Below are positions 43,798 to 50,160 of a DNA stretch of 64,000 nucleotides, one piece after another. Position numbers and translations under genes: made by a program. The stretch covers positions 2,243-66,242 of the forward strand of contig JACOTG010000253.1 of NCBI GenBank assembly GCA_016178505.1, given 5' to 3'. The DNA is from Planctomycetota bacterium. Lineage in GTDB: Bacteria; Planctomycetota; JACOTG01. The notes beneath the pieces were generated by a model. That model worked only from the letters and a program-made list of their open reading frames with translations. It had not been told where the DNA came from and searched no databases. The stretch's first letter is position 1. Every line of letters begins with the position of its first letter.

Positions 43798-45846
43798 TCA
43801 GTTCTTCGAAGCTTCGGTCGCGTCGAAATCGATGGACTTCAAGAACGCGTCGAAGACCGCCGTGTCTTCCGGCGTTGCGACCCCATCGGCGGCGAAAACG
43901 TAGAGCGACTCGCCATCGATGACATACACCGCTCGGCGCTTCTTTGCTTCGTCGGCGAATCCTTTTCCTTTGCGCCCATCGATGACGACTTCGCCGATCG
44001 ACGCCGCGCCCTTCGAGGTGAATCGCTCGTCCATCATGCTCGGCTTGAATTCGGCGGGCACGTACGCAGACGTCACTTGGATCGAGCAATCGGCTCCGCT
44101 CGGCGACTTGCCTTCGATCCGGAGAAGCTCATTCGAGATCTCGGCGGCGGCCTTTCGAGGCTGGAATGTGAAACCGTCCGGCTTCGTCAGCGCGAGGCTC
44201 CAGAGCCGGTTCGTGTATCGATTCCCGTCGATCTTCACCACGTCGTCGTCCGACGGTCGCAGGGTTCGGCCCTTGCTGGTGATCTCGACGACGTCGATGT
44301 CGATGTTGCCGATCCCGGCGAGCAAGTTGCCGAACTCCTTGGCGAAGCTTCCGTCCTTGAGCGACATTTTCGAGAACGCGAGGTGCAGCGGATCGACGAA
44401 GCCGTAGCCGTTCGTCGCGTCGAGCGCATACCACTCGCCGTCGATCCACACTTCGTCCCACGCGTGACCGCCCCAGACTCCGCCGACGTACTCCAAGCCC
44501 ATCACGGGTCGCGCAGGGATGCCGGCCGCGCGGCAAAGCGCGGCGAGGAACACCGAGTGCTCGGTGCAGTCACCCGAGCGGTTCTTGCACACCTCCAGCG
44601 CCGAGGCGAACGCGACGTCCATGTTCTTGTTCGTCACGTTGTCGTCGACCCATCGCTCCAGCTTCTGAGACGCCTTCCACGCGTCGGTTTCGTCGCCGAC
44701 GACGTCGTTCGCGACCTTCACGATGTCCGGCGCGTCCGACTGGATCATCGGGTTCGGAGCGAGGAAGTCCGCAAGCTCGGCCGAAGGATTGCGGAGTGGT
44801 CGCGTGCCGGTCTTGCCCGGCGGCGGCACCGTACGACGATTGCGGAGCAATATCGTTCCGCCGGCTTCTTTCGATTCGACCGCCTGCCGTGCATCCTCGA
44901 GGTTGGGGAGATTCACGTCCGCCGATTTCGGCCGAATGCGCAGCAAAGCCGACTCGGTCGTGCGCGGGTTCGGGATCAGCTCCTTCGACGTGACGAGGGT
45001 CTTCGCGAAGACGTCGGGCGACAGAGTTGCCGCTTCGGCGGAACCGCTGAGGGCTCGCTCGCGGTTGACGCTGAACGTCTCGATCTTGAGTCCCATCATC
45101 GGAACCGACGTCTTCATCGGATCGCCATTCTCGGCGACCCACTCGGAGGTCTTGAACATCGGCATCACGTCGAGCGTCGTCTCGAGCTTCGTCAGCGTTT
45201 CCTTCTTGCCGTCGAGAAGTTCCGTTTCCTCGGGCCCGATGATCGTGACGTGAGCCGTCGCCGGACCATTCACTTCGGCCGCGAACGTCTTGGCATCGTA
45301 GGTCGTGCCCGGCTTCAGCCCCTTCTCGATCGCCAGGCGCTGGATCTTGTACGGTCCGAGCGCGTCCGGCGGACAGTTGAGAGTCGATTCGTGCTTCGAT
45401 CCGAACGTGTCCGTCACGACCTGTGCCTTGCCGCCGCTGAACGTCACGTCGGTGATCGTTTCCTTCGCGGATTGTTTTGAAACCGTGTGGATGCGGACGA
45501 GCTCTCCGCTCTCGCGCTCGAGGGTGGTCGACGATTGCGCGACTTCGATTGCGGCGCCGAGGCGCTTCATCGAAACCTTGGTTTCGATTGCCGTTTCGAA
45601 GAGCGGCCCGGAGGCGTCGGACTTCTTGCGGATGGTGGTGTGCACGTAACCGACGTCGCTGCCCACCATGCGCATGAGATCCCATCGCTCTTCGATGAGT
45701 TCATCTACCGGCTTCGGCGCGGACGCCGTCGAAGCGAGCATTTCCGTTCGAGGTGCGTCGCCTCCGCGGCAGCCGAGTGACAGCACCAGCGGGATGGCGA
45801 GCAAAATGCAGAGCGACGTCCAGAGACGGCGTGAGGCTCGGGTCAT
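43798..45846 (-). CDS. Transglutaminase-like domain lipoprotein
   Basis: ATG 45846 follows GGAGGAG; lipobox SLGC; triad GDCTEH...HAWDEV...LDAT. Confidence 0.9.
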   Translation of the reverse strand: MTRASRRLWTSLCILLAIPLVLSLGCRGGDAPRTEMLASTASAPKPVDELIEERWDLMRMVGSDVGYVHTTIRKKSDASGPLFETAIETKVSMKRLGAAIEVAQSSTTLERESGELVRIHTVSKQSAKETITDVTFSGGKAQVVTDTFGSKHESTLNCPPDALGPYKIQRLAIEKGLKPGTTYDAKTFAAEVNGPATAHVTIIGPEETELLDGKKETLTKLETTLDVMPMFKTSEWVAENGDPMKTSVPMMGLKIETFSVNRERALSGSAEAATLSPDVFAKTLVTSKELIPNPRTTESALLRIRPKSADVNLPNLEDARQAVESKEAGGTILLRNRRTVPPPGKTGTRPLRNPSAELADFLAPNPMIQSDAPDIVKVANDVVGDETDAWKASQKLERWVDDNVTNKNMDVAFASALEVCKNRSGDCTEHSVFLAALCRAAGIPARPVMGLEYVGGVWGGHAWDEVWIDGEWYALDATNGYGFVDPLHLAFSKMSLKDGSFAKEFGNLLAGIGNIDIDVVEITSKGRTLRPSDDDVVKIDGNRYTNRLWSLALTKPDGFTFQPRKAAAEISNELLRIEGKSPSGADCSIQVTSAYVPAEFKPSMMDERFTSKGAASIGEVVIDGRKGKGFADEAKKRRAVYVIDGESLYVFAADGVATPEDTAVFDAFLKSIDFDATEASKN

Positions 45847-46220
45847 GAACGGCTCCTCCAAATCGAAGGGGTCGGGTGCGAACTCGAGGCGCTTTCGTAC
45901 ACCGTTGCTCTCGCAGTGGGCAACGCGGGCCGGAACCATACGCGGGGCGCAGCATTCCGTTCCGGCCTCGACGGCGCGCGAAGGTACCATGACGCGCTTC
46001 CGGGCGCGATTCCCGACGGGAGGTGATATGTGATTGCAACGCATCGGTTCGGCGTTCGAAGTCGAGGCCGGTGGTGAGCCGCGCCTCGCGGTCCTCGACA
46101 CCGGCTCTCCCATGGTCCTCCTTTCGAAGAGCTTTGTCACCGAACACACGCCTCCAGACAAGCTCCGCACGATGGCACCGCCGATGCTCACGCTCGAGGG
46201 ACTGAAGAACGGATGGGCCG

Positions 46221-46250
46221 TTGACTCGCCGACGCCGCCAGGCCTATCCT
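46221..46250 (+). promoter_or_regulatory. Putative sigma70 promoter
   Basis: TTGACT-N18-TATCCT ends about 45 bp upstream of ATG 46295. Confidence 0.5.
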
Positions 46251-46294
46251 CTCGGGTGCCGGGTCCGGCGAAGACCCGGAAAGGGGAACGAACG

Positions 46295-46972
46295 ATGAGA
46301 CTGGTGCGCGTTTCCGCCTTCGCTGGAATGCTACTCGGCATCGGCTTGATGGGGCTCGCGGACGACGACGAAAAGGCTCCGACGCCTTGTCCGGAGCACC
46401 GCGACCTGGTGAAGGTGCTCGACGAACATCTCGTCGACGCCGAGAAGGCGCTCGCGTCGAACAAGCTCGAGGAAGCGGCGGCTCGTCAAAAGCAGATCCT
46501 CGACGATCTCGACAAGATCATGAACCTCCATGCCGGGCAGGGCGGCTGACCCGGCGGCGGCGGCTGACCCTTCGGGGGAGGCGGCTCGGGCGGTTCGTCC
46601 GGGCAATCGACGGGCGGCGGCGGCAGCGACGACGCGAAGAAACGCGAGTCATCCGCAGAATCGAAACAACGCGAGGAGGCGGCGCGCGCGAGGCCAGATC
46701 ACAAGTCGGGCGCGCCCAAGGATGGCAAGGAGTCGAACGACCCGAAGCGCGACTCCGGGAGATCTCGCCACCGTCCACCGGATGCAGCGAAGGCGGGCCG
46801 GTCCGACGCGAACTCGGCTGGTGTCTGGGGCAACCTGCCGGCGCAGGTCGTCCAACAGCTCGGCACGGTAGTGACGTCGCCATTTCTCGCGAAGTACCGC
46901 GATGCGCTCGAGTCGTACTTCAAACGCCTCGCGGATTCGGAGACGAGCACCGGGACGTCGAAACATCGCTGA
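46295..46972 (+). CDS. Secreted protein with two in-frame UGA codons (candidate selenoprotein or readthrough, 225 aa)
   Basis: AAAGGGG RBS and signal peptide; TGA at 46547-46549 and 46565-46567; the frame then stays open for 134 codons and ends WGNLPAQVVQQL...KYRDALESYFKRLAD...KHR-stop. Confidence 0.7.
46584..46604 (+). promoter_or_regulatory. Candidate bacterial SECIS hairpin
   Basis: GCTCGGGCG-GTT-CGTCCGGGC forms 9 bp (two G-U). The loop starts with G, 25 nt after the second UGA. Confidence 0.45.
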
Positions 46973-47037
46973 TCGCGACCGCCGTCTTGTAGAATCCCGA
47001 AGCGCGTTCTCCTCTCCCCAACGAAAGGATGGATCTC

Positions 47038-47622
47038 ATGGAACCGCTCGCTCGGAACATCATGCGATCACGGGTGATCACCGTGACGCCGGAAACACCG
47101 CTGTCGGAGCTGGCGCGGACGTTCGTCGAGGACGGGATCAGTGGCGTTCCCGTGGTGCAGGTCGACGGCAAGCTCGTCGGTGTGGTGAGCCGCACCGACC
47201 TCCTCGAACGCCTCGTATCGGGGAGCGTCACGCCGGGGATGGGGCCGTATTTCACGGAGTTGTTCGCGGCGTCGGAATCCGAAACTCCCGATGAGCCGAT
47301 GTCGGAGATGGAAGCAGAGTCGGAACGCGAACAGCTCGGCACCGTCGACGACATCATGGAGAGTGACGTCGTCACCGTCGCGCCGACGACTCCCGCATCC
47401 ATCATCGCTGCAAAGATGGCGCGCGGACGCGTCCATCGCGTGGTCGTCGTCGATCGGCAAAGGGTCGTCGGGATCGTTACCTCTCTCGACATGATGGGCC
47501 ATTGGCAGATGCCGGCGGCGCCGGTCGTCACGAAGAAGCCGAAGGCGGCGGTGGTGACGGCACGGGCGCGACCAAAGCCCCGTGCGAAAAAGGCGCGGAA
47601 GGCGGCGGCTGGCCGGAGGTAG
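47038..47622 (+). CDS. CBS-domain pair protein with a basic Lys/Ala tail
   Basis: ARNIMRSRVITV...GVPVV...GVVSRTDLL and VDDIMESDVVTV...GIVTSLD. Confidence 0.92.
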   Translation: MEPLARNIMRSRVITVTPETPLSELARTFVEDGISGVPVVQVDGKLVGVVSRTDLLERLVSGSVTPGMGPYFTELFAASESETPDEPMSEMEAESEREQLGTVDDIMESDVVTVAPTTPASIIAAKMARGRVHRVVVVDRQRVVGIVTSLDMMGHWQMPAAPVVTKKPKAAVVTARARPKPRAKKARKAAAGRR

Positions 47623-47709: not shown

Positions 47710-50160
47710 TCAGCGAACGGTGATGCGCGCCGTTCCGATCTGAACGCCGTTCCGGAACAGCACGGCATTCTGGAACTGAAGGGCGGTCTGCAGGAACTCA
47801 CGCGGGAACGTGAACGATGCCGCGACGAGACCCGCCGCATCCGGCGAGAAGGGCACGTCGAAGTCACCCCCAGGTCCGGTGAATCGCACGAGGTAGGCGC
47901 CCGCCGGAACGCGCAAGGCGTCGACGGTTCCCGTGATGTCTCCCTCGTTGGGCCCGACCGTGTTCGTCGTGACGGACGTGCGGAACGTGATTCGCGCAGC
48001 GCCAATCCGACCCAGGATCAAGGCTCGACCCGTGGCGGTCAGACCGGCGTCGATGATCACCTGCCCCACGAGGGTGGTGCCATCGAGGAGATCGAGCGTG
48101 TCCGCCCAGAAGACACGGCGGCGGAAATCGCCGCGGGGAGTGCGGAGCACCGCGGTCACGTTGCCGAGGGCGTTCGGACGAACCGTGCCGAGCGTGATGT
48201 CGCTGAGCGGGCTCGAAAGAACGACGGTGAACCGGCCGGTCGGATTCAGCGGGACGGGGAGGCCCGTGCCGACGAACCGCACCGAGCCCGCAGTTGCCGA
48301 AAACGATCCGGTGATCGTGATGGCGCCGAGACCGGCGACACCGTCACCCGCGATCGGGAGGATCGGCTTCGAGAAGCCAAGTTGATTGTTCACGGTGACG
48401 GCCATCGTCGCCGTCGGACTCGCGTTGTTCGCGGCATCGAATGCGATGGCCGAAATCGTATGCGGGCCGTTGCTCACGGCCGACAGATTTGCCGTCGCCG
48501 CGAAACTCGGCGCGAGTCCCGTAGCGATCGTGGCGCCGCCGTCGAGCGAATAATCGACGCGCGTAACGCCGATGTTGTCGAAGGCGTTCGCCGCGAACTT
48601 CGCCGCGGGGCCGCCGATGAGCACCTTGCCATTCGGCGCGGTGATCGTCACGTCGGGTGCGATCGTGTCCGCCGCGGCCTGGTTAACCGTGAATGCCAGC
48701 GCGCCCGTCGTCTGCGTATTGCCCGTCACGTCCGTGGCGATCGCCTCGATCGTGTGGTTCAAGCCGAGACCGACGGTGTTCACGATGAACTCGTACGGTG
48801 AGCTGATGTCGTCGACGGCCGCGCCGCCATCGAGCTTGAAGCTGACTTTCTTGACGTTCTCGTTGTCGGACGCGTTCGCGACGAACTTCACCAAGCCGTT
48901 GAGCGGGTTCGCGAGGCTCGGAGATGCAAGCGAGACCGTCGGGTTCGTCAGATCGATGAAGCTCGGCGTCGGGCTGGTGACGTTCGGGTGATCGAACGGC
49001 GAGAGCCCGTTGAGAGCGCGAATGTCCGAGATCCCGTTGCGGAGGAACTCGGCGAGGTCGGCCTTCTGTTGAGCCGACAGGCCGAGCGGACGAATGAGCG
49101 GGTCCTGCTGCACGTGGAAGTCGCCCCCGCGATCGTAGAAGTCGACGAGTTGCTCGATGGTTTGGATCTTCCCGCCGTGGAAGAAGGGCGCAGCTGCCGA
49201 CAGGTTGTTCAGAACGCCGGTCTTGAATGCTCCGCGATGGCGTACGCGGCCGGTCGTGTTGAACGTGCCCAAGTCTTCTTCGATCGGCGTCACACCGATG
49301 TTGTGCACCTGACCATCCGAGAAGTTCTCGCCGTTGAGATGGCACTTGTCGCATCGGCCGGCTCCACGGAAGACGTTCCAACCGCTGAACTGCTGCGGCG
49401 TCATCGCGGCCTGGTTGGCGGTTGCCGCCATGACGTGGAAGGGCGATTGATCCGTCAACAGCGAGCGCTCGTATGCGGCGATCGCCTGCCCAAAGCGGTC
49501 GAACGTCACCGATGCCGGCCCGGCGATGGCGTCGCCGAACGCTGCGGCGAAGAGCTGCTGGTAGGACGTTCCCGTCGAGATCGCGCCGTTCAGAGCCTGG
49601 AACTTCGCTTCGATTTCAGCGGGAGTTCGGTTGAGGTGCCCCATCTCGACCGGGCTTCGCGGCGGTCCGACGGCTTGCGCTTCAAGGGAGCCGTTCCGCA
49701 CGACCAGTTGGCCCGGGTTCGTGGTGCTGAAGAAATCCGGACCGGCTCGACGATCCCAGAACTGGTTCGCCTGGAACTGCGTGTTCATGAAGTTCGGAGC
49801 CTGGCGGCCGGTCGTCTGACCGTGGATGCCGATCGAGCCGAACACGTCGTCCGCCGTGCCGAACAGCTCGTCCTTGCCCGGGTTCTTTGCCAGAACATTC
49901 AACGACAGCGGATGCGATCCACCTGCCTCGGGCGTGTGGCAGGATCCGCACGCCACCGTGTCGTCGGAAGACGTCCGGACGTCCCAGAAAAGCTCCTTGC
50001 CGAGCTGGATCTTGGCGGGGTTCTGCGGATTGTCAGCTGGCACCGGCACCGCGTTGAACGGCGTTCCGGTGTTGGCGATGGTCGCTTGCGCAAACATCAG
50101 CGCAGCGCCCGCAGCCGCAAGCGAGACAATCGGACGAATACGCGCACGCACGAGTTTCAT
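47710..50160 (-). CDS. Di-heme cytochrome c peroxidase/MauG-family protein fused to two Big-like Ig domains and a C-terminal beta domain
   Basis: Signal peptide; LGKELFWD, CGSCH, QFWDRRA, SPVEMG, CDKCH and GAFKT...APFFHGG; PTVSLASP and PDVTITAP Ig repeats. Confidence 0.92.
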   Translation of the reverse strand: MKLVRARIRPIVSLAAAGAALMFAQATIANTGTPFNAVPVPADNPQNPAKIQLGKELFWDVRTSSDDTVACGSCHTPEAGGSHPLSLNVLAKNPGKDELFGTADDVFGSIGIHGQTTGRQAPNFMNTQFQANQFWDRRAGPDFFSTTNPGQLVVRNGSLEAQAVGPPRSPVEMGHLNRTPAEIEAKFQALNGAISTGTSYQQLFAAAFGDAIAGPASVTFDRFGQAIAAYERSLLTDQSPFHVMAATANQAAMTPQQFSGWNVFRGAGRCDKCHLNGENFSDGQVHNIGVTPIEEDLGTFNTTGRVRHRGAFKTGVLNNLSAAAPFFHGGKIQTIEQLVDFYDRGGDFHVQQDPLIRPLGLSAQQKADLAEFLRNGISDIRALNGLSPFDHPNVTSPTPSFIDLTNPTVSLASPSLANPLNGLVKFVANASDNENVKKVSFKLDGGAAVDDISSPYEFIVNTVGLGLNHTIEAIATDVTGNTQTTGALAFTVNQAAADTIAPDVTITAPNGKVLIGGPAAKFAANAFDNIGVTRVDYSLDGGATIATGLAPSFAATANLSAVSNGPHTISAIAFDAANNASPTATMAVTVNNQLGFSKPILPIAGDGVAGLGAITITGSFSATAGSVRFVGTGLPVPLNPTGRFTVVLSSPLSDITLGTVRPNALGNVTAVLRTPRGDFRRRVFWADTLDLLDGTTLVGQVIIDAGLTATGRALILGRIGAARITFRTSVTTNTVGPNEGDITGTVDALRVPAGAYLVRFTGPGGDFDVPFSPDAAGLVAASFTFPREFLQTALQFQNAVLFRNGVQIGTARITVR

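Follow-up and report, generated by a model that had tools for sequence, protein, structure and literature searches.

A candidate selenoprotein family of the Planctomycetota with in-frame UGA codons at a flexible hinge

Bacterial selenoprotein genes of the fdhF type, for which the Escherichia coli gene serves as model case, carry an in-frame UGA and, 16-37 nt 3' of it and still inside the coding region, a stem-loop whose small apical loop begins with G-U, as described in the 2026 inventory (PMC13188914). The same organization is found in a gene at positions 46295-46972 of the plus strand of the window investigated here, a stretch of 64,000 nucleotides from a Planctomycetota bacterium (assembly GCA_016178505.1, contig JACOTG010000253.1, positions 2,243 to 66,242), which we regard with good confidence as a genuine selenoprotein gene. 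With genes that rely on SelB and a selenocysteine insertion sequence (SECIS) in general, it also shares the existence of homologues containing either selenocysteine (Sec, U) or Cys and the presence of selA, selB, selC and selD in the genome. It differs from them by its two UGA codons, which are 18 nt apart with the second residing inside the hairpin of the first, and by the UUCG loop of this hairpin, which is off the consensus.

With regard to motifs, the family is most similar to TsoB and to metal-binding double selenoproteins containing CU or UxxU, none of which shares its sequence. Two Sec residues separated by few positions in one bacterial protein are also found in TsoB (PMC13188914), which resembles a rhodanese/DsbD fusion and carries a UxxxxU motif (NF045694). 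The window protein has no NCBIfam match and thus no sequence relation to TsoB, whose enzyme-type domains contrast with the disordered hinge described below, where the residues are arranged as U-x5-U. Likewise, the CU dyads and close Sec pairs of MbdU (CU, NF045648), of putative mercuric-reductase-like UxxU proteins (NF041115) and of SaoC (CU) (PMC13188914) resemble the adjacent C-U present in relatives from the genomes G230, G074, G098 and G384 (with G and L denoting our handles for genomes and loci). The family under study differs from these proteins by the absence of an NCBIfam match, by its architecture and by the lack of metal genes in its vicinity. An analogy is offered by animal thioredoxin reductase, with its C-terminal Gly-Cys-Sec-Gly arm, and by the secreted selenoprotein P, which contains multiple Sec residues. 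The similarity to these proteins lies in a flexible segment rich in Gly where Sec has Cys or another Sec as neighbour, and in the secretion of a protein with more than one Sec, whereas both differ by their eukaryotic origin, the placement of the SECIS in the 3'-untranslated region and their unrelated sequence.

The family is not among the 119 prokaryotic selenoprotein families and subfamilies listed in Table 1 of the 2026 inventory (PMC13188914), where entries defined only by cd or PTHR identifiers were set apart by their type (TlpA-like, Prx-like, 2Fe-2S, BtuF, Fe-S oxidoreductase), which is unlike the helical model obtained here. Judging by the main text of PMC12013277, it is also absent from the nine new deep-Sep families. 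We found no publication on the selenoproteome of Planctomycetota; individual members could be contained in supplementary lists of candidates, among them S9 of PMC4807772. The initial annotation, which was made from the sequence alone, had proposed a candidate new family, and this proposal is upheld in that no known selenoprotein family matches. It thus appears that we are dealing with a new selenoprotein family of the ordinary bacterial decoding type.

An open frame with two UGA codons and its proposed decoding

The gene starts with an ATG at 46295 and comprises 225 codons (46295-46972, plus strand), followed by a TGA at 46970-46972 that constitutes the true stop. Its frame contains a TGA at 46547-46549 (codon 85, termed UGA1, the proposed Sec85 in the context GG-U-P) and another one at 46565-46567 (codon 91, termed UGA2, the proposed Sec91 in the context GGGG-U-P), both on the plus strand. 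The text at both sites reads GGC GGC TGA CCC GGC GGC GGC GGC TGA CCC TTC, and the two codons are located within a near-tandem duplication of GGCGGCTGACCC. Past UGA2, 134 further codons are open and contain neither Met nor stop. In a list of open reading frames (ORFs) compiled with translation table 11, the frame is closed at 46549 and there is no downstream in-frame ORF of at least 40 aa. The double in-frame TGA and the extended open frame lacking an ATG thus read as initially annotated.

The stretch following UGA2 has the properties of a coding region. Its GC content by codon position amounts to 0.65/0.60/0.78, with the two other frames showing values at the third position (GC3) of 0.64 and 0.60, a pattern that resembles coding sequence, given the 65.5% GC of the genome. 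When matched alone to a family profile built without the window, this part (46568-46969) scores 74.9 bits (E 4e-19 at Z = 1e6), which illustrates that the open stretch is more than chance, and the family profile covers the window product from its N- to its C-terminus. The two TGA codons are identical (0 differences) in contigs from four public sequencing runs, of which X1 and X2 span the stretch completely and are possibly the source of the assembly, and X3 (46426-46788) and X4 (46516-46687) stem from other samples of the same study. Confirmation of both codons had been called for initially, and they are unchanged in these other samples. Elsewhere in runs X1-X3, other contigs match a 34-nt stretch of the C-terminal motif (46918-46951) with three differences and diverge thereafter; these are probably family members of other organisms present in the same samples.

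The search for selA, selB, selC and selD suggested in the initial annotation located all four in the genome. SelA is encoded at C3:13313-14407 (475.5 bits, with C denoting contigs), tRNA-Sec was identified by ARAGORN and Rfam (71.6 bits) at C3:10785-10877, SelB resides on contig C140 (350.8 bits at a cut-off of 242) and SelD is found at C3:12278-13198 (locus L138 of the window's own genome, G000; 362 bits). The selD gene itself contains an in-frame TGA (SCGG-U-ASK), which is followed after about 36 nt by a hairpin with a GUU loop as in hairpin 2 of the window gene, and it thus serves as positive control for the decoding of UGA as Sec in this organism. We also observed that selD, selA and the gene for tRNA-Sec are clustered on contig C3. 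SelA is present in 290 of the 401 genomes sampled, including all 30 that carry a TGA at the hinge of a family member (30/30), a co-occurrence that is supportive without constituting a formal test, since the relatives are not independent.

The published model of a bacterial SECIS, as given in the inventory, demands a loop of 3-9 nt with a G in one of its first two positions, a stem of at least 4 bp, a spacing of 16-37 nt between UGA and loop and a minimum free energy of -7.5 kcal/mol or below (PMC13188914). The initial annotation had described two hairpins, CCC-TTCG-GGG and a 9-bp stem with a G-initiated loop 25 nt after UGA2, both of which were recovered. Hairpin 1 (46559-46586, plus strand, -16.0 kcal/mol) has an interrupted 9-bp stem, with CCC-UUCG-GGG at 46568-46577, and a UUCG loop at 46571-46574, which starts 24 nt from the U of UGA1. 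The 5' arm of this hairpin harbours UGA2. Hairpin 2 (46584-46604, plus strand, -13.7 kcal/mol) consists of a perfect 9-bp stem (46584-46592/46596-46604) closed by the loop GUU (46593-46595) and agrees in all respects with the published model for UGA2, with a spacing of 25 nt between UGA2 and loop.

Equivalent elements are found throughout the family. With the published constraints restricted to perfect stems, hairpins are detected at 38 of 47 distinct Sec sites, compared to 38 of 490 homologous pseudo-sites in 49 relatives that lack Sec. Under a stricter rule demanding at least 6 bp, the numbers are 38/47 for the Sec sites, 43/490 for the pseudo-sites and 394/4700 for shuffles of codon order. 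The commonest loops among the Sec sites are GUC, GUU, GGUC(A), AGUUC and GGC, and an RNAalifold consensus of 23 sequences of the YDNG subfamily contains eight pairs, three of them with compensatory changes. All five genes with a double TGA (the window gene and those of G376, L130, G006 and G357) show the same nested arrangement, with a hairpin after UGA1 that encloses UGA2 and a second hairpin after UGA2. In G006 and G357, the first hairpin conforms to the SECIS model, and its GUGAA loop contains UGA2.

Based on these features, we infer Sec insertion at both UGAs. SelB in complex with Sec-tRNA(Sec) would translate the mRNA through both codons, with UGA2 served by hairpin 2 (9 bp, GUU loop, 25 nt downstream) and UGA1 either by its own hairpin enclosing UGA2 or, in a less canonical manner, by hairpin 2 as well.

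The family, its hinge and selection past the UGA

Relatives of the read-through product were found in 27 of 61 related genomes (with the window's own being counted), and a profile built from 20 members matches proteins in 284 of 401 Planctomycetota genomes (E <=1e-5). All aligned members have in common a signal peptide followed by a helical region with I(D/E)xLI at its end, a linker rich first in G/S/Q and then in charged residues, and a C-terminal motif RWGxLP...(F/Y)PxxYRxxLxxYFxRL. The planctomycete architecture outlined in the initial annotation thus exists, in the form of a helix ending in IDxLI, a G/S/Q linker that sometimes contains Cys and a WGxLP...Y..L tail. Scans of Pfam and NCBIfam with the window protein and 9-10 relatives returned nothing near any cut-off, the Pfam model of DUF4175 (PF13779) matches neither the window protein nor 10 relatives, and a word-index protein search yielded 24 matches devoid of Pfam domains and named at most 'hypothetical protein'. 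A search for related loci in a collection of genome contigs, with the window protein alone as starting point, recovered no relative. By BLASTP, residues 26-219 align with a paralogue in the same genome (P0026, contig C3; E 2e-17) that has the identical KRLADSETST tail. This paralogue is intact and contains neither a TGA nor a Cys at the hinge.

Among the 150 profile matches listed, 32 were flagged for an in-frame TGA and, after read-through, 30 of them carry it at the hinge, 10-28 residues past the Leu of IDxLI. These 30 genes originate from 30 of the sampled genomes and contain one or two TGAs each. The flag in G013 was rejected as a hinge TGA, being the terminal stop only. In L076 of G235, the TGA is located outside the hinge, in a different loop rich in Gly (GGGT-U-KSG) that precedes the last helix of the N-terminal domain by about 20 residues, and may mark a second Sec position in the family. 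Of 78 unique genes that were fetched, 29 have Sec at the hinge, 6 have Cys only and 43 have neither, numbers that do not reflect prevalences as the sample is enriched for TGA-flagged matches; one more gene (G180) fell below the score cut and is additional. Outside the hinge, the mature part contains Cys in only 3 of the 78 genes, with G235 as a fourth, which bears the TGA at this place.

The arrangement of the chalcogen residues varies among members. The UPxxxxUP motif of the window gene (GG-U-PGGGG-U-PF) recurs in L068 of G376 (KT-U-PSGGV-U-PK), whose contig stretch is the same as L132, and in L130, whereas G006 and G357 show U-x6-U. An adjacent C-U is present in the four genomes mentioned above, UxxC in G232, UxxxC in G274, Ux4C in G349 and G180 and Cx4U in G330, and the remaining hinge-TGA genes contain a single U. 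Where only Cys is found, it occurs as CxxC in G025, as Cx4C in G054, as Cx7C in G056 and as single residue in G003, G375 and G389. When species-level genomes were searched separately for the C-terminal motif of the YDNG subfamily (alignment A2), 34 loci were obtained, several from the same genomes as above, with a TGA at the hinge in 28, Cys in two and no TGA in four. The residues surrounding the TGA in this subfamily vary (GGG-U-SSG, TGS-U-QNG, TGT-U-PNG, GKG-U-QGGGC and, in L130/L132, KT-U-PSGGV-U-PK). Relatives with either TGA or Cys at the same hinge, as looked for by the initial annotation, are thus represented by the 30 hinge-TGA genes, the 6 Cys-only genes among 78 and the 28 of 34 YDNG loci. 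Two of the YDNG loci, L119 and L131, come from metagenome-assembled genomes labelled Bacillota and Proteobacteria, which probably reflects mislabelled binning and may alternatively indicate horizontal transfer.

The region 3' of the TGA is conserved at the protein level. For the 39 codons from GRWGRLP on, the ratio of nonsynonymous to synonymous substitution rates (dN/dS) has a median of 0.042 and a maximum of 0.269 in 27 distinct Sec-bearing YDNG genes, with 133 of 351 pairs being usable (finite dS >0.05). In this best-sampled subfamily, dN/dS downstream of the TGA, whose calculation the initial annotation had advised, is far below 1 and the domain 3' of the TGA is under strong purifying selection. 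A C-terminal domain that is conserved and selected requires translation past the TGA.

A quick maximum-likelihood tree calculated for the 78 genes requires 17 changes of the Sec state, with 12 changes being forced by well-supported branches, and sister pairs consisting of one copy with Sec or Cys and one without are found within G320, G232, G330, G230, G098 and G054. Numerous lineages have retained the hinge site as TGA or Cys, and others have lost it. Tandem pairs of paralogues in which one copy carries the hinge Sec or Cys and the other does not were also observed at L065, L073, L075, L082, L048 and L032, in several genomes as mutual closest relatives. These pairs suggest repeated duplication or gene conversion with the difference at the hinge being kept.

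Protein architecture and genomic context

The gene is preceded by a sigma-70-like promoter site, TTGACT-18-TATCCT (46221-46250, plus strand), a consensus match in 9 of 12 positions that was found once, compared to a mean of 0.0 in 50 shuffles, and by the purine-rich stretch AAAGGGGAA (46280-46288, plus strand), a putative ribosome-binding site located 6-14 nt 5' of the ATG. The product starts with an apparent Sec-type signal peptide, MRLVRVSAFAGMLLGIGLMGLA (residues 1-22; 46295-46360, plus strand). The three elements named in the initial annotation, namely promoter, ribosome-binding site and signal peptide, are thus present as judged from the sequence. A comparable hydrophobic N-terminus is found in all 20 aligned relatives (20/20), mostly ending in AxA-Q. 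On this basis, the 225-aa product would be exported via its signal peptide and subsequently cleaved.

An AlphaFold2 model built on an alignment of 65 sequences (A3) has a mean predicted local distance difference test score (pLDDT) of 63.8 and a predicted template modelling score of 0.34. It shows an antiparallel helical hairpin comprising residues 33-81 (H33-54 and H58-81; 46391-46537, plus strand; pLDDT 82-94), followed by a linker of low confidence (residues 82-174; 46538-46816, plus strand) that is rich in Gly and Ser and then in charged residues. The mean pLDDT of 10-residue blocks is 47-59 over residues 81-180, and the linker is of low complexity in all relatives. At its C-terminus, the protein forms a small domain of two helices (H183-192 and H197-218) within residues 175-218, YRDALESYFKRLA (46817-46948, plus strand), with WGNLP encoded at 46826-46840. 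W178, L181 and P182 do not vary among the 65 sequences, and at least 90% of these share G179, Y201 and Y208. Both Sec residues are located at the start of the linker directly behind helix 2, and Cys32 (TGT, 46388-46390, plus strand), the sole Cys of the mature protein, is found one residue ahead of helix 1, on the side of the hairpin where both Sec residues reside. In the Sec copy at L075 (G320), the mature N-terminus contains the sequence CPTCGGDC immediately ahead of helix 1, which corresponds to the position of Cys32 in the window protein.

The model contains no strands but only helices and the disordered linker, and the thioredoxin-like alpha/beta fold is absent from it, in line with the non-thioredoxin protein anticipated by the initial annotation. 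Searches of the PDB by fold found generic helical hairpins only, with no match at E <=0.001, and by sequence only compositional matches (designed coiled coils and polyQ). The mature form would thus consist of a helical hairpin, a flexible U-P-GGGG-U-P hinge, a long linker that is disordered and charged, and a conserved helical domain of small size at the C-terminus.

In its usual context, a family copy is located between large proteins matching DUF4175 and an alpha/alpha toroid protein of about 400 aa, which resembles prenyltransferases and squalene-hopene cyclases and is TED-like (G054, G057). Although this position is immediately downstream of proteins that match DUF4175, PF13779 itself is matched neither by the window protein nor by its relatives, and the window copy stands alone outside such a cluster; the window gene would thus be a stand-alone, Sec-bearing paralogue of the Planctomycetota family. 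On contig C3 of the window's own genome, the toroid protein is present, and the large upstream protein, which is cut at the contig end, has no Pfam match. At L028 (G043:C4), helix and C-terminal domain of the family were observed at the end of a single open frame of 1441 aa with a Q-rich, DUF4175-like upstream part, which would be a fused form of the family. In four of four genomes of the window's order (G000:C3 L133, G001:C419, G002:C135 and G003:C167), the operon copy resides about 4.5-5.6 kb from selA, which may reflect either conserved synteny or a functional link.

The divergent upstream neighbour of the window gene encodes a lipoprotein-like protein of 720 aa with a transglutaminase core (43798-45960, minus strand; PF01841, 76.7 bits). 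A transglut_core gene beside a Sec-insertion operon is also mentioned for a planctomycete from Porphyra (PMC4807772). Downstream of the window gene follow a stand-alone CBS-pair protein (47029-47622, plus strand) and a di-haem cytochrome c peroxidase (CCP_MauG) fused to Big_7 Ig domains (47710-50160, minus strand). The vicinity of the window copy, and of those operon copies that were examined, contains no gene for metal resistance or transport.

Alternative readings and implications

Several observations weigh against the decoding proposed for the window gene. Whereas the SECIS elements that the initial annotation had placed behind the UGAs are borne out for UGA2, no hairpin fits the model for UGA1, as hairpin 1 lacks a G in its first two loop positions and hairpin 2, at 43 nt from UGA1, is outside the 16-37 nt range. 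Across the family, 9 of the 47 Sec sites lack a hairpin that conforms to the rules. The region does not fold more stably than shuffled sequences (z of +1.0 and +1.15, with two relatives likewise not significant), GC-rich Gly codons fold readily anyway, and positions 46450-46750 gave no match to any Rfam family even with E values of up to 10 being considered. Since the shuffle test is not significant, folding energy provides no argument, and the enrichment relative to homologous control sites was used in its place. Scored against the same window-free profile, the N-terminal 84 aa alone reach only 15.6 bits. The window gene also forms a long branch of uncertain placement without a close relative, and the dN/dS values refer to the YDNG subfamily. 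Finally, the hinge is devoid of both Sec and Cys in 43 of the 78 genes that were fetched. With about half of the family lacking it, the site would constitute an added function and would not be essential to the core role of the family, which is unusual for selenoproteins.

A further difficulty, the location of both TGAs in a near-tandem repeat of GGCGGCTGACCC that is possibly recent, would be explained if the window gene were a pseudogene, disabled lately by the TGA-containing duplication of 18 nt with its downstream frame still undecayed. The long branch and the presence of a second, intact paralogue without TGA in the genome would be compatible with such a fate, which we nevertheless consider very unlikely, as UPxxxxUP in combination with two tandem hairpins is found in another lineage (G376/L068, L130) and Ux6U in a third, and as a canonical SECIS with GUU loop resides at the right distance. 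The 134 open codons, the 74.9-bit domain and the coding-type GC3 also speak against decay, and an ancestor with a single TGA would already have needed Sec decoding. The suspicion that the TGAs originate from errors in sequencing or assembly, or that TGA is reassigned to a standard amino acid, draws on nothing but the general prior for metagenome-assembled genomes and can be practically dismissed in light of the agreement of contigs from four runs with 0 differences and the dedicated tRNA-Sec, SelA, SelB and SelD. Moreover, TGA terminates the window gene and 15 of 20 tabulated family genes and is thus not reassigned genome-wide.

It could also be argued that the TGAs act mainly as stops, in which case the secreted hairpin of 84 aa would be the functional protein and the full-length chain a minor product of read-through or Sec insertion, or a selenium-regulated isoform. 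In bacteria, Sec insertion competes with release factor 2, and two serial UGAs should thus lower the yield, with UGA1 in addition lacking a canonical SECIS. We consider this scenario unlikely, since the conservation of the C-terminal domain and the purifying selection past the TGA across the family require translation, and since the position of the TGA is kept in 28 of 34 YDNG loci. A by-product of 84 aa would be compatible with Sec insertion at both sites and is not a rival to it.

With respect to the role of the hinge, we prefer an exposed reversible diselenide or selenenylsulfide centre formed by U85, U91 and possibly Cys32, which would engage in periplasmic redox chemistry and to which we assign about half of the probability. 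The hairpin brings Cys32 close to the Sec residues, so that it may participate. Alternatively, the hinge could act as periplasmic chelating loop for a soft metal or metalloid (Cu(I), Hg, Cd, As or selenium itself) instead of a redox centre. The UPxxxxUP, CU, UxxC and CxxC motifs in a Gly-rich flexible loop without enzyme-like fold would suit this function, and metal-binding double selenoproteins with CU and UxxU motifs have been inventoried (PMC13188914). Chelation is still doubtful given that neither the window copy nor the operon copies examined are accompanied by a gene for metal resistance or transport, that the spacing between the chalcogens varies (0, 2, 3, 4, 5, 6 and 7 residues) and that many members contain only one of them. 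Among conceivable roles, we would thus rank redox chemistry first, the binding of soft metals or metalloids second and covalent cross-linking third.

If genuine, the family would stand apart from nearly all catalogued bacterial selenoproteins, which are single-Sec enzymes or thioredoxin-like redox proteins. It would be common in one phylum (284 of 401 genomes), with Sec forms in at least 30, and it would be exported and non-enzymatic in appearance, with Sec placed in a flexible hinge. Somewhat more tentatively, and at slightly less than even weight, we propose that this selenoprotein family extends throughout the phylum and represents a new structural type, where Sec resides in the disordered hinge of a secreted helical protein instead of an enzyme fold. 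As standard annotation stops at the TGA, with the ORF of the window gene being called with 84 or 171 aa, the family is systematically mis-annotated. Its double-UGA members would provide a natural test of the action of SelB on close UGAs and nested hairpins. We know of no function for DUF4175, and the link of the family to DUF4175 clusters would offer an entry point to a widespread envelope system. If the hinge indeed acts as extracytoplasmic diselenide relay for the DUF4175/alpha-toroid system, it would provide the first functional handle on it.

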